In this document: in pieces, positions 19,026 to 25,738 of the stretch
Layout of the letters: each line of letters begins with the position of its first letter
Position numbering within the stretch: the stretch's first letter is position 1
Assembly (NCBI GenBank): GCA_965233585.1
Contig: CBDDTI010000288.1
Coordinates: 1-49,823, forward strand
Length of the DNA stretch: 49,823 nucleotides
Reading direction: 5' to 3'
Source of the DNA: a bacterium
GTDB taxonomy: Bacteria; SAR324; NAC60-12
The notes under the pieces: model-generated
Seen by the model: the letters and a program-made list of their open reading frames with translations, nothing else
What the model was told of the DNA's origin: nothing
Databases searched by the model: none
Translations under genes and position numbers: made by a program

Positions 19026-22000
19026 ATGCCGAAATCTTACGTGTGTCCCGAATGCCAAAAATCATTTGACAGAAAATCTTCTCGCGACAAACATCATTTA
19101 TTCCGTCATCGTGAAACTACAAAATCTCGAGCTCGGACCCCACTTAATCAGTCGTTTCAATGCCCATTTTGTAAGAACGAAGTAAGTTCCTTTAAATCGA
19201 GAAAAGATTTAGTCTCACACATTGACGCTTCTCATTTAGAGAATTTAAATTATTCATTGTACAAATCTGCACTTAACGGAAAAATCAAATTTTATCGAAA
19301 ACACATTTTTTCAAAAGAAACGCTTCAAGGATTTGTTGCAAATAAAAAAAATAGACAAGAAATAGTTGACGTTATTTGTCACGAACTAAGTAAAACTTTT
19401 ACGGTTAAAGTTGCCCTTATTTTGACAGCGGCGTATCAAATTCCTGATTTGAATTCCGCTGCAGAAAAGAAGGACATTGAGCCAAATACTACCAATATTG
19501 ATGATACCACTGATAAACCTTCTGATCAGTTGTCGCCTCAAATATTGTCCAATGATCGAGATGTCTTTGCTCTAAGAACCAGCTACATTCAATTCACGTC
19601 TTTTGATTCATCCCGCTCGTTAAAAGGCAAAGTCCAAAAATTATTACATAATTTAGTAAATAGAGAAGAAGATTTGTTAATGAGAGGTTCTGGATGGAGA
19701 TTTGAATCTTTATCTTTTAGCGATATTCAAATTACTAGCATTTGATTTTTATGAACTTATTTTGTTTTATTCAAAAAAATTTCAAATAAACTTTGGAAAT
19801 GGATTTTATAGAAATTCCACGTGATTTAAAGAGATCTAATTGCTTGGAATGGAAAACTCGTTACGATAAATTCAATTTTCTTTATCTGTACATTAGACAT
19901 CTTTTTCCTGAGGAAACGGTTTCCGTTGTTGATTTTCGTCAAATGCCGATAAAGTATCTTAAAAAGTTTAATATAAGAGGTTTCAAGTTCCCTCTTCAAT
20001 TTTGTAATTTAAAAAAATTTCTAAATAGAAACTCCCATTTACCGATTTCAATTTCAGTTTTTTATGAGAGTGAAGGTCAAGTTTCAAAGTTAGGTTTTTT
20101 TACTAATAAAAACAACAACAGAAACAAAAACATTTTAAATTTGTTAATGATAAAATATGATCCTGAAATCTCTCTTGAAAATGAATCTCCATTTTCTCGC
20201 CTTGCAAAACCAATTCAACGCAAGAAAAAATCTTCTTGTAAAAAGATTGTCAATTGTGGTTCTAATGTCAAATTGGGTTTTTCTTCCAAGTTTAAAAAGA
20301 TCAAGGATTTAAATCAACAGCACCATTTCTTTAAAATTACCAAAATCCAAGGTTTTTTGAATAATCGGGCCGGACTGTTATCAGGTAAAAAAGCAGCTCA
20401 ACAAAAGCACATCTATTGTGAAAAATGTCTGCTACATTTTCGATCCAAATCTAAAAAAGAAAAACACGAAGACACTTGCTGCGATAAACAACGTGCTGTC
20501 TACCCAACCAAAAATTCCTCCATAAGTTTTACCAATCATAAACATAAATTTCATGCTCCTGTTGTCGGATTTTGTGATTTTGAATGTGTACTTCAAAGAA
20601 ACAAAGAACGATCTAAATGTCAACTCTGTTTAAAAACTGAGTGTTTGTGTGCTTTTCCCACCAGTGACGATATAAACGTGCATAGACCAGTGGGGTATAG
20701 CTTGCTTTTTGTGGATTCGAATGATGAAGTATTTTTTCAAGAAGAATATGTAGGAGAGGATGCAGCCAAACATTTTTTGGATCGAATGCATTTCTATGAA
20801 AAAGTTGTTGACGAAAGAAAACAAAAATTTAGACATATTGTTAAAAATCAATCTAGTCCGCAAGAATGGCAAATGTATCAAAAAGCAAAAGTTTGTCATA
20901 TTTGTGGTGGTCAATTCAAAAAGTACTCTAGAAATTACAGAAAAGTTCTAGATCATGATCACGTAACAGGGAAAATAATGGGCGCAGCTCATTCACTGTG
21001 TAACTTGACGAGATCCGGCCCCTTTCACACTCCAATTTTTTTCCACAACGCTCAAGGGTAAGAAGTCTTAATTGGGTTTATTTATTAAACTAACACAAAT
21101 TATGTACGCGTTTCAGATACGATTTGCATTTAATCGTGGAAGAGTTAAATGTTTCCAAATTTAAGCAAAATGTAAAAGTCTTAGCAAAAAACAGTGAAAA
21201 GTTTCGCACTCTTACATTGGGCAAATTTAAAATTCAAGATTCGTTAGAGCACATTTCTGGCAGTCTAGATGCACTTGTTCAAGATTTGAATCAGACCTCG
21301 AATTTTACCTTTCCCATTTTACAACAAATGGAAAGATATAAAAAAATTCCTGTTCGTCAAAAATCAAAAGCTTTAAAACTTTTAAAAAGAAAAGGCGTTT
21401 TTTGTTACGAACATTTCCAATCTCTACAAGAGATGAAGAAAAGTCGAAACCTTCCGTCCAAAGACTCTTTTTATTCTGAATTGAACGAAGAACACATTAC
21501 GGAAGCGGATTATTCCCATGCTCAAGAAGTCTTTAAATCGTTCAAATGCAAGAATGTGGTGGATTACATGATGCTCTATTGTTCTTTAGACGTTGTTTTG
21601 CTGTGTGAAGCATTTCTTCAGTACAGGAAAATGGTCATGGAACATTTTCAATTGGATCCTGTTTATTATCTAGGTAAATTTTAATCTTTAACGTTTGATG
21701 TATCGTAATACTAAATTTTGTCTACTTAAATTAGGAATTCCTGGTTTGAGTTTTGATGTCATGCTTATGTTCTTTCAAAATTCAGAACAAGCTAAATCAG
21801 ATAATAAGCCCACATCCGAATCTGAAACCTCCAAACCCCTCGGATCATTAGATGTCTATTCTGATCCTGAAATGGAGCGTTTTTTTACAAAGGGTATCAG
21901 AGGTGGGCAAAGTTTTATCGCTCAGCGTTATGCCAAAGGGAATAGCAATCCTAGAAAAAGCGGCGATCACTTGTTATACATTGATGGTAATTTTATACTG

Positions 22001-25000: not shown

Positions 25001-25738
25001 AAAGCCAGTCTTGGTCAACACATCAACAGTTTTCAAATCATCAATGAAAACTTGGTGGCTGTCAACAAGAAGCCGGCAATAATAGAGCTCAGGAAGCCTT
25101 TAGCTGTTGGATTTTCTATTTTGGAATTGTCCAAGTTGTTTATGTACAGATCGTATTATGACACGATTCAACAACATTTTGGTGAAGAAAATGTGTCTTT
25201 ATGTTTCTCAGACACGGATTCTTTTCTTTTAAAAGTAAGATGCAACAACTTGGAAAGGGAAATGAAAAAATTGGAGCACATATTTGATTTTTCAAAGTAC
25301 CCCAAACAACATCCTCTTTTCGATGACAGTAGAGCCAATCAGCTTTTTTATTTCAAAGACGAACTAAAAGGCAGAGCAGCTATTACTCACTTTATAGGCT
25401 TACGTCCAAAATGTTATTCTATGAAAATTACTGATTTTTCAGACAAAAACAAAACAGAAGAAAAGAAAATTTGCAAAGGTTTAAAAAAATCTAGCATAAA
25501 AAAGCAATTAACCTATAACGATTACAAAAAATGTCTGAAACGGACTGTTCTAATTTACAAATCTTTCAAAAACTTAAGATCGAAGAATCATAAAATTCGG
25601 ACATGTTTTCAAAGAAAGATTGCGTTATCAGCAATGGATTCCAAAAGACACATTTTGAATTGCGGATATCACACTTTATCACTAGGAAATTGTCTTATTG
25701 TCAACAACAAATCATCTAAATGCCCTATTTGTAAATAA
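19026..25738 (+). CDS. polB: Protein-primed family B DNA polymerase, 7 exons (~1367 aa): 19026-19737, 19812-21057, 21117-21673, 21735-21986, 22047-22222, 22289-22655, 24945-25738
   Basis: Splicing restores HNAQG|YDLH (ExoII), YYL|GIPGLSFD, YID|ANNLYG (motif A), LHQ|AHDQFPLAP, KLFANSTFGKFI|ENVRN (motif B) and FSDTDS (motif C); N-terminal C2H2 fingers, GSGW motif and an endonuclease VII-like CHIC..DHDH..G..H..CN insert; exon lengths sum to 4104 nt. Confidence 0.92.
22762..23277 (-). CDS. Intron-nested antisense ORF with (TSSPP)n repeat
   Basis: Lies within polB intron 6; N-terminus MDKGKLGRMM resembles MDDGNLWRQM of the equivalent ORF in copy 3. Confidence 0.5.
   Translation of the reverse strand: MDKGKLGRMMRRGKYEVLRAKWTEEEEEERFKLLPDPPLSETPPRPPLMGGGGRLRRFARGLIMMIRTAAASVADFVAGRPDVIPATSSPPTSSPPTSSPPTSSPPTSSPLTSSPPTSAPPTKPILLKMTILMRLSVWLVPAGRTAATVAGTTTHLCLKIKENIKNDPKFV
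22921..23035. repeat. 15-bp minisatellite (GGCGGGGATGACGTC), ~7-8 units
   Basis: Directly visible. Confidence 0.9.
23550..24740 (-). CDS. Intron-nested antisense Gly/Ser/Trp repeat protein (396 aa)
   Basis: ATG to TAA open frame with unique termini, 30-nt GGAWSSTKT units within four larger ERPVAPAWPSRTPYKSVPQ repeats, downstream AATAAA on the minus strand (~23503). Confidence 0.75.
   Translation of the reverse strand: MDKKDQEKSKAFWLKVIKSGQEEATSSPTSGSSSTGAAAGGAWSSTKTEGAWSSSGAAGGGSWASSERPVAPAWPSRTPYKSVPQKSGSESWKSASTAGAGGGGAWSSTKTGGTWSSSAALGGGSWTSSERPVAPAWPSRTPYKSVPQKSGSESWKSASTVGAGSGGAWSSTKTGGAWSSSGAVGGGAWSSTKTEGAWSSTKTAGAWSSSAALGGGSWASSERPVAPAWPSRTPYKSVPQKSEPESWKSASTTGAGGGGAWSSTKTGGAWSSSGAVGGGAWSSTKTEGAWSSTKTGGAWSSSAALGGGSWASSERPVAPAWPSRTPYKSVPQRPESESRKQTSHRVSFDLSSQSTSKSKPPPYRHVEPSPTPEVRQVTAFPSVWSPSTARKVTKKN

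Follow-up and report, generated by a model that had tools for sequence, protein, structure and literature searches.

The stretch of DNA considered here (the window) is a whole 49.8-kb contig (C288; 49,823 nucleotides) of an assembly that contains 12 Mb of DNA in 747 contigs. It harbours a full Polinton/Maverick-like element, called copy 2, which runs from 13057 to 37023 on the plus strand and is about 24 kb long, with ends good to about 2 nt. The element carries polB, whose motifs mark it as the gene of a protein-primed family-B DNA polymerase, and the subject of the present work is how this gene, located together with a small upstream open reading frame (ORF) between 19026 and 25738, is read. 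From the comparison of related sequences we find that polB probably contains five GT-AG introns and is translated from an ATG at 19799, and that it is preceded by a separate frame, ORF-A (19026-19745, plus strand), of 239 amino acids (aa) and a stop codon.

When five segments are removed from the region downstream of ATG 19799, the remaining six exons, all on the plus strand, form a frame of 3405 nt that encodes 1134 aa and has no internal stop codon. Exon 1 (19799-21057) contains ExoI (DFE), an insert similar to HNH/Endonuclease VII and the first half of ExoII, and it aligns with residues 379-723 of the homolog P0001. Exon 2 (21117-21673) supplies the second half of ExoII and the ExoIII string YCSLD, exon 3 (21735-21986) ends in the YID of motif A and is followed by exon 4 (22047-22222), and exon 5 (22289-22655) ends just past motif B. 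Exon 6 (24945-25738, with the stop codon at 25736-25738) contains motif C (DTDS) and the string KCY, and aligns with residues 1139-1391 of P0001. In the joined protein the motif strings appear in the order DFE (residue 260), NAQGYD (417), YCSLD (574), YIDANNLYG (687), KLFANSTFGKF (859), DTDS (960) and KCY (1026), which we take to be ExoI to ExoIII, motifs A to C and KxY of family-B polymerases. The HNH/Endonuclease VII-like motif, CHICG...DHDHVTGKIMGAAHSLCNL, occupies residues 355-410 of exon 1, between ExoI and ExoII; it matches PF02945 (E 9e-6) and is present also in the homologs P0001, P0002, P0040 and P0042.

The exons are placed with precision by their homologs. P0001 and P0002 match each exon at E values from 1e-21 to 1e-37, and the exon peptides are colinear with P0001, which is an uninterrupted protein of 1472 aa, in such a way that each of the five junctions joins up without loss or gain of a residue. 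To exemplify, the alignment pairs on the two sides of a junction (exon residue to P0001 residue) are 417 to 723 followed by 1 to 728, 83 to 966 followed by 1 to 968, 57 to 1019 followed by 2 to 1022, and 122 to 1137 followed by 1 to 1139. A spliced alignment to a Polinton polB had been proposed as a check in a first-pass annotation, which was made from the letters of the window, and in this alignment the exon peptides fit P0001 without gaps.

In what follows, introns 1 to 5 are those of the five-intron gene. They correspond to introns 2 to 6 of the first-pass annotation, and the intron 1 of that annotation is here called gap 1. Intron 1 (21058-21116, 59 nt, agg/GTAAGA..TTTCAG) interrupts ExoII in phase 2, intron 2 (21674-21734, 61 nt, tag/GTAAAT..AATTAG) is in phase 1, intron 3 (21987-22046, 60 nt, atg/GTAATT..TTTCAG) interrupts motif A in phase 1, intron 4 (22223-22288, 66 nt, cag/GTAAAT..TTTCAG) is in phase 0, and intron 5 (22656-24944, 2289 nt, ttg/GTAAGT..TTTCAG) lies in phase 1 just after motif B; all are on the plus strand. 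They begin with GTRAGT-like donors, in which a G precedes the GT, and a T-rich tract stands before the CAG or TAG at their ends. We assign introns 1 to 5 to the U2-type GT-AG spliceosomal class.

The first-pass annotation had listed these five segments and gap 1 (19738-19811, 74 nt, GC..AG) as six spliceosomal introns, and all six positions and lengths are right. Joining across the six gaps gives an open frame of 4104 nt and 1367 aa, in agreement with the size of about 1367 aa stated there, and it restores ExoII (NAQG/YD) and motif A (YID/ANNLYG), while motif B (KLFANSTFGKF) comes immediately ahead of the last gap. The description of the polB ORFs as apparently broken holds with the exception of intron 3, since these 60 nt are free of stop codons and the ORF of copy 2 is not broken there. 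Five of the six proposed introns are confirmed by conservation, selection, colinearity and exact losses, as described below, and the first is not, as it has an AT donor in one subfamily.

The assembly contains 28 loci with the window polB, which constitute the comparison set and are grouped by their identity to copy 2: subfamily A at 96-99.5%, subfamily B at about 90% and subfamily C at about 81%. Two of the loci lie in the window itself. Copy 1 polB (10534-13054, plus strand), which belongs to the subfamily with about 90% identity and comprises the 5' part of ORF-A and polB, is found in an older, shortened element copy (4945-13056) to the left of the full element. It is dead, with a frameshift and stops, and it breaks off inside exon 2, where the full element begins with its left end. 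Copy 3 (41772-44717, plus strand) is a polB fragment with about 84% identity that is also dead; it has frameshifts, lacks the last exon, and the donor of its intron 2 is mutated to GA (GAAAGT). The claim that the same intron positions recur in these two copies is therefore correct for gap 1 and intron 1 in copy 1 and for introns 1 to 4 and the donor of intron 5 in copy 3, while the other sites are missing and one of the copy 3 donors is the GA just mentioned.

Over the 28 loci the splice sites are kept almost without exception. The GT..AG pair of intron 1 is found in 28 of 28 loci with lengths of 58-61 nt, that of intron 3 in 27 of 27 (58-62 nt) and that of intron 4 in 27 of 27 (57-67 nt). Intron 2 has GT..AG in 26 of 27 loci, the sole exception being the dead copy 3, and the donor of intron 5 is kept in 27 of 27. 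The lengths of the four short introns thus range from 57 to 67 nt across the loci, and they drift by steps that are not multiples of three.

Consider now a comparison of subfamilies A and C. Every insertion or deletion in the exons is a multiple of three (3, 39, 3, 3, 3, 63, 3 and 6 nt), and third codon positions are 2.5 to 4 times more diverged than first and second positions. The introns are 26-39% diverged, with insertions and deletions of 1, 2, 4 and 5 nt. The ratio of nonsynonymous to synonymous substitution rates (dN/dS) for polB is 0.06-0.13, even among copies that are more than 98% identical. When the Jukes-Cantor (JC) distance of the introns is set against dS, the values are 0.31 versus 0.34 for subfamily B and 0.56 versus 0.71-0.87 for subfamily C. 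The introns diverge at about the synonymous rate, while the exons are under strong purifying selection. In the per-copy table of intactness, which covers ORF-A and exons 1 to 5 and leaves out exon 6, all frames are open in 22 of the 28 loci, two loci are cut short at the 5' end (the exon 1 columns being partial or absent) and open in exons 2 to 5, and four are broken, including copies 1 and 3 of the window. All 11 loci of subfamily C are intact. Of the 16 copies in the tree described below, 14 have an open exon 6, and F_C212 and G_C315 have one stop each. These patterns support the view that the window polB is a live gene and not a pseudogene, and the warning of the first-pass annotation, that the gene would be mis-annotated as a pseudogene, is borne out for five of its six introns.

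The same assembly holds more distant polB families, of which D, E and F are 42-72% identical to the window protein per exon at the amino acid level and G is 28-40% identical. The codons at which A to C carry their GT..AG introns are interrupted by such introns in families D, E and F too, except at two sites: family D is without intron 2 and family F is without intron 4. In both cases the interruption is absent exactly at the predicted junction, so that YYLGIPG is contiguous in D and YHKRDDQ is contiguous in F. Introns 1 and 3 are found in all three of D, E and F but not in G, which has no intron at any of the five sites wherever the matches span both sides. In a maximum-likelihood tree of the last exon, families (A,B,C) and (D,E,F) group together as one clade, supported at 100/99, to which neither G nor the outgroups belong. 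Because the tree nests D to F with A to C, the absences of intron 2 in D and intron 4 in F are best read as exact losses. The naturally intron-less alleles of D and F reproduce the predicted junctions to the base, and they are the closest available stand-in for a result from reverse transcription PCR (RT-PCR).

In 21 relatives from metagenomes, with 30-45% identity, no interruption is found at the five sites wherever the matches span both sides, and at the last intron site the two flanking matches are 3-9 nt apart in nine loci. This agrees with the statement of the first-pass annotation that Polinton polB genes are usually single ORFs. Introns are common to the six families A to F, among them families no more than 62-65% identical in the last exon; the five introns would accordingly be old, and the long nuclear residence suggested in the first-pass annotation is plausible.

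The situation at gap 1 is different. The gap takes in the final 8 nt of ORF-A (two codons and TGA), a spacer of 53 nt (19746-19798) and the first 13 nt of polB. ORF-A encodes two C2H2-like zinc-finger motifs and a GSGW motif, has a dN/dS of 0.11-0.31, and aligns in full with residues 32-276 of P0042 (E 2e-13), a protein in which this domain and the polymerase are fused and to which exon 1 aligns at residues 403-641. By these alignments, ORF-A is a homolog of the N-terminal domain that fused protein-primed polymerases carry. Its closer homologs in a library of representatives, some of them from the same assembly, likewise stand alone, as ORFs of 213-239 aa whose ends lie just past the GSGW block. 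The TGA of ORF-A and ATG 19799 are kept in A, B and C, and a stop and an ATG are kept also in D, E and F, where the distance between them is 2-4 nt in D, a few codons in E and about 100 nt in F, with varying frame relation. In family D there are 35-36 nt between the conserved protein blocks, and the frame relation differs between D copies. The residues that follow the ATG, DFIEIPRDLKRS, match by eye SYLDLPLPIKNS of P0002, in which a block SY[IL]xLP..[IL]K.S follows the GSGW motif. On this evidence, ORF-A and polB very probably constitute two cistrons.

If gap 1 were an intron, as in the first-pass annotation, there would be six introns, including a GC-AG intron at 19738-19811, and a single polymerase of 1367 aa with the zinc-finger domain fused to its N-terminus. 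This gene model has attractive features beyond its open join: the AG acceptor of gap 1 is kept in all subfamilies, the distant relatives P0040 and P0042 do have the domain fused to the polymerase, and the homologs of ORF-A end in unconserved tails after the GSGW...I.I block, as if running into an intron. The donor, however, differs between the subfamilies: among the loci that cover it, those of A have GC (11 of 11), those of B have GT (3 of 3) and those of C, all of them intact, have AT (11 of 11). The GT of copy 1, where the 74-nt gap reads GTATTT..TTTTAG at 11274-11347 (an offset of 8464 nt from copy 2), was correctly noted in the first-pass annotation, as was the GC of copy 2. The context of the donor is also poor, as it reads cta/GCATTT (in general G[C/T]ATTT, preceded by A), while in every accepted donor displayed in families A to F the GT is preceded by G and followed by A or G. 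Furthermore, family D has no room for an intron between its conserved blocks, the ATG and the frame downstream of it are kept in all families, and the proposed splice would delete DFIE, which belongs to the part that matches the conserved P0002 block by eye. As intact C loci carry AT and the stop and the ATG of family D are 2-4 nt apart, gap 1 is not taken as an intron, and we consider six introns unlikely. Two further ways to connect ORF-A with polB are rejected. Frameshifting or readthrough from ORF-A into polB would have to pass several stops, and the frame relation in D varies (35 versus 36 nt). Another acceptor for gap 1 that keeps MDFIE is impossible, as the polB frame does not open before 19790 and no AG lies in the stretch from there to 19799.

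Far less probable still is that polB is a decaying pseudogene, in which the introns are chance pairs of GT and AG around frameshifts and stops. It is true that copies 1 and 3 of the window are broken and that gene callers would see fragments of ORFs only, but decay is at variance with the low dN/dS, the exon indels in multiples of three and the 22 open loci described above, and chance pairs of splice signals would not be kept across families that are 42-72% identical, with exons colinear with intact homologs. Hardly credible is also that the segments are removed or by-passed without a spliceosome, by self-splicing introns, inteins, or ribosomal frameshifting or bypass. Group I introns have been reported in some polinton-like viruses (PMC12220804), but the short segments of 57-67 nt are far too small for group I or group II introns, and inteins are excluded by lengths that are not multiples of three. 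The GTRAGT-like starts and the T-rich tract before CAG or TAG described above are common to all of them. A search of the whole window against Rfam gave no match.

Several observations weigh against the preferred gene model, with its five spliceosomal introns and its two cistrons. The case for splicing is a comparative one. Contigs from four sequencing runs (X1, X3, X5 and X6) that map to 18000-22760, a stretch that stops before the repeats of the long intron and has the last junction outside it, pass through the introns with no joints at any of them, and look like DNA. One contig of the X6 run stops exactly at 21057, the last position of exon 1. None of these contigs is given weight in deciding whether the introns are spliced. 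Another contig of the X6 run ends at 18487 with 21 extra letters, which may be a cDNA-amplification adaptor of the template-switch type. Pfam sees the polymerase only weakly on single exon pieces, with PF03175 scoring 25.7 bits against a cut-off of 25.8 on the exon 5 piece alone. An arrangement of two adjacent cistrons with 53 nt between them is not what one normally meets in a nuclear mRNA of eukaryotes. Gap 1 joins in frame and has GT in B and GC in A, so that it might be used as an intron to a minor extent in these subfamilies. Finally, the assembly is binned as bacterial, and eukaryotic contigs are binned along with it.

In terms of ORF density the assembly is mixed, with a few large gene-dense contigs and about 7.4 Mb in 675 contigs of low density, which are taken as eukaryotic. 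Sequence matching the window element is found in 45 contigs (1.3 Mb), and 41 of these are in the gene-dense class. In this setting the description of the short introns as host-style, made in the first-pass annotation, finds no support. By a crude test, pairs of GTAAG[TA] and TTT[CT]AG at a distance of 50-70 nt are not in excess in 7.3 Mb of the low-density contigs, which may not belong to the host of the element. In two actin-related genes of the same contigs, an equally crude test, with the same reservation as to the host, places exon-like pieces at distances of 0.6-1.9 kb. The shortness of the introns may be due to no more than a pressure for compactness.

Intron 5 deviates from the others in size. 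In subfamily A, of which copy 2 is part, its 2289 nt have a GC content of 49% and are filled with tandem repeats between 22912 and 24637, namely a 15-nt unit repeated eight times (22912-23034) and units of 276, 189, 87 and 27 nt (23744-24637). The corresponding intron in families D, E and F is about 56-74 nt long, as counted by hand, and in subfamily C exons 5 and 6 are about 1 kb apart. Outside polB copies the sequence of intron 5 does not occur. It would appear that minisatellites have enlarged this last intron, which once measured about 60 nt, to 2.3 kb. The repeats open long stop-free frames on both strands, which match no protein family. Among them is a minus-strand frame of 398 aa at 23550-24746, which is rejected as a gene; it has no match in Pfam and is read as a by-product of the GC-rich tandem repeats.

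Candidate introns are seen also at other places in related polB genes. Both polB copies of family F (L009 G000:C212 at about 69452-69673 and G000:C98 at 7385-7606) contain an identical insert of 222 nt in exon 1, with terminal inverted repeats (TIRs) of about 44 nt. The insert starts with a GT at its left edge, and an AG follows immediately after the right edge; splicing between them would be in frame (FVSK/EKKN) and would restore the protein length of family A. No other full copies of the insert are found in the assembly. The insert could be an introner-like gain, i.e., a new intron derived from a small transposon. Among the 21 metagenome relatives, three have candidate GT-AG introns at other sites in polB: L026 has one of 56 nt inside motif C (566-621), L021 has one of 55 nt inside motif B (4132-4186) and one of 104 nt further on, near KxY (4690-4793), and L016 has one of 122 nt (613-734) which holds a tRNA-Leu(TAA) gene on the opposite strand. 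The homolog P0042 (910 aa) ends in ...KFIDG followed by unrelated residues, exactly at the place of the motif A intron, and P0040 (656 aa) ends after ...LLRKG. These abrupt ends look like ORFs that run into introns in other lineages; no locus for P0042 was found in the sets of genomes and viral contigs. Intron-bearing Polinton polymerases may be commoner than the literature suggests.

In other respects the full element has features of an ordinary Polinton. It is bounded by TIRs at 13057-13673 and 36459-37023, of about 600 nt and 96-97% complementary. Its left end is inside copy 1 polB and its right flank is unrelated GC-rich DNA; the two flanks were inspected for a target-site duplication of 6 bp and do not match each other. 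An rve integrase with a chromodomain is encoded at 32087-33175 (PF00665 rve, E 2.6e-9), and with polB and this integrase in one element that has TIRs it is classed among the Polintons/Mavericks. An A32/FtsK-like ATPase at 25766-26497 gives weak matches under the Pfam cut-offs (Pox_A32 E 9e-4, FtsK_SpoIIIE 6e-3). On the plus strand at 30269-30850 there is a gene for a TBP-like protein (Pfam TBP E 5e-18; TBPs in PDB down to E 6e-14), directly followed at 30927-31676, on the same strand, by a gene for a TFIIB-like protein, which matches the TFIIB zinc ribbon of Pfam (E 2e-7), residues 22-46 of human TFIIB (E 2e-5) and also a helix-turn-helix. Among the top-ranked papers of one literature search, none mentioned Polintons together with TBP or TFIIB. 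These two genes fit with a nuclear expression based on RNA polymerase II (Pol II). Two large ORFs have capsid-like leads in the Atlas, and their identity is a matter of these leads only: for the ORF at 28952-30394 (minus strand) the nearest clusters have DJR-like_dom in 15-24% of their members (score 0.90), and for the ORF at 33176-34933 the nearest entries are hypothetical proteins of 617-640 aa from Preplasmiviricota (score 0.97-0.98). Among the proteins of the element, Pfam gave no match to a double jelly-roll (DJR) capsid or a penton, and an adenain-like protease was not found.

Short candidate introns occur in other genes of the element as well. Four GT-AG segments of 59-64 nt, at 15737-15800 on the plus strand and at 16589-16651, 17134-17195 and 30395-30453 on the minus strand, each join frames that are open over at least 50 codons on both sides, and the one at 16589-16651 has a counterpart of 62 nt in copy 1 (8234-8295).

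How, then, could the polymerase be expressed? The gene gives a complete enzyme only if five segments are removed, three of them in or beside catalytic motifs, and from this need we infer that nuclear transcription and the host spliceosome would be required. The element would be transcribed in the nucleus and its transcript spliced by the spliceosome of the host to a messenger for the 1134-aa enzyme. ORF-A would be translated separately and supply in trans the N-terminal domain that is fused to the polymerase in relatives, and the polB cistron could be translated either from a transcript of its own or by reinitiation. As a lead, ORF-A may act in priming, by analogy with the terminal proteins of adenoviruses and phi29. 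Control of replication by splicing, as envisaged in the first-pass annotation, is speculation. In evolutionary terms, the five introns would have been gained early, after which intron 2 was lost in D and intron 4 in F.

When all observations are put together, one may tentatively picture an active Polinton clade that evolves like a nuclear gene family, although we hold this wider picture to be less likely than not. In this picture the replicase of the clade has acquired at least five introns, which selection has maintained in six families. Two of them were then lost exactly, most simply via recombination with reverse-transcribed, spliced mRNA, one intron has swollen to 2.3 kb, and family F is maybe gaining an intron from the 222-nt inverted-repeat transposon. 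The N-terminal domain, a candidate priming or terminal protein, has been split off into its own cistron, and the clade has TBP-like and TFIIB-like genes of its own. If this is true, the lineage is fully committed to an expression that depends on the nucleus, on Pol II and on the spliceosome, and pipelines for virus discovery that are blind to introns would systematically miss it.

It remains to relate these findings to known systems. No report of position-conserved spliceosomal introns in Polinton/Maverick polB was found in the literature, with the founding papers outside the search. Early papers on Mavericks and on 'c-integrases' are said to mention introns in some genes of the elements, and because of this an absence from print cannot be claimed. 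The DNA polymerase gene of the chlorella viruses PBCV-1 and NY-2A reportedly has a short intron with nuclear splice signals (Grabherr et al. 1992). That gene would also be a viral family-B gene in need of splicing of the host type, but it has one intron and encodes the large RNA-primed PolB of a giant virus, while the window gene has five introns, encodes a protein-primed PolB, and belongs to a lineage with intron loss and growth. Adenoviruses and phage phi29 have separate genes for terminal protein and polymerase, and the layout of the window is like theirs in that a small protein is encoded just upstream of a protein-primed polymerase; a priming role of ORF-A may be supposed from this analogy.

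With ordinary Polinton/Maverick polB genes (those of vertebrate Mavericks, PMC8097293, of family G, P0001 and P0002, and of the 21 metagenome loci), the window gene shares the enzyme layout of ExoI, HNH-like insert, ExoII, ExoIII, motifs A, B and C and KxY, and the elements share TIRs, an rve integrase and, by weak matches in the window, an A32-like ATPase. The ordinary polB genes each consist of one ORF that is uninterrupted at the five sites and has the N-terminal domain fused, whereas the window has five introns and a split-off ORF. In PMC8097293, intact vertebrate Mavericks are described as being without introns, 'in agreement with' Kapitonov and Jurka 2006, and 'intact' Mavericks are defined by intronless ORFs. 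Endogenous polinton-like viruses are likewise stated to be without introns in PMC10120064, and surveys commonly call genes with prokaryotic or viral ORF finders on these grounds. Spliceosomal-type introns inside Polinton-like integrated viruses are described for dinoflagellate eupolintoviral proviruses, in which introner transposons are found (PMC12166617). As described there, the dinoflagellate introners are recent copies of repeated intron-generating transposons, while introns 1 to 4 of the window have no copies outside polB loci and sit at fixed codons. The conservation of intron positions in Polinton polB would be the new point, and the finding is not categorically new.

The consequences are partly practical. 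A lineage that needs five splices for its polymerase would be scored as degraded, yet its dN/dS and open frames place it with the most active elements of the assembly. The families provide a natural data set on the gain, exact loss and growth of introns inside a mobile element. The finding also points to nuclear transcription for the lineage, and it suggests that the N-terminal domain of the polymerase may work as a separate protein, which bears on how Polinton replication is primed.

The window outside the full element has some further features. It is AT-rich, with 32-36% GC, and has GC-rich blocks (45-57%) at 1-4944, 37024-41000 and 45000-47000, which flank the AT-rich elements and have long stop-free frames on both strands. 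These blocks could be host DNA, satellite DNA or another element. The terminus of the full element, TTGTAGAGAAATGTACC..., recurs at 4945, where the older, shortened copy begins, and at 46628, from where the match marks the end of a further, inverted element.

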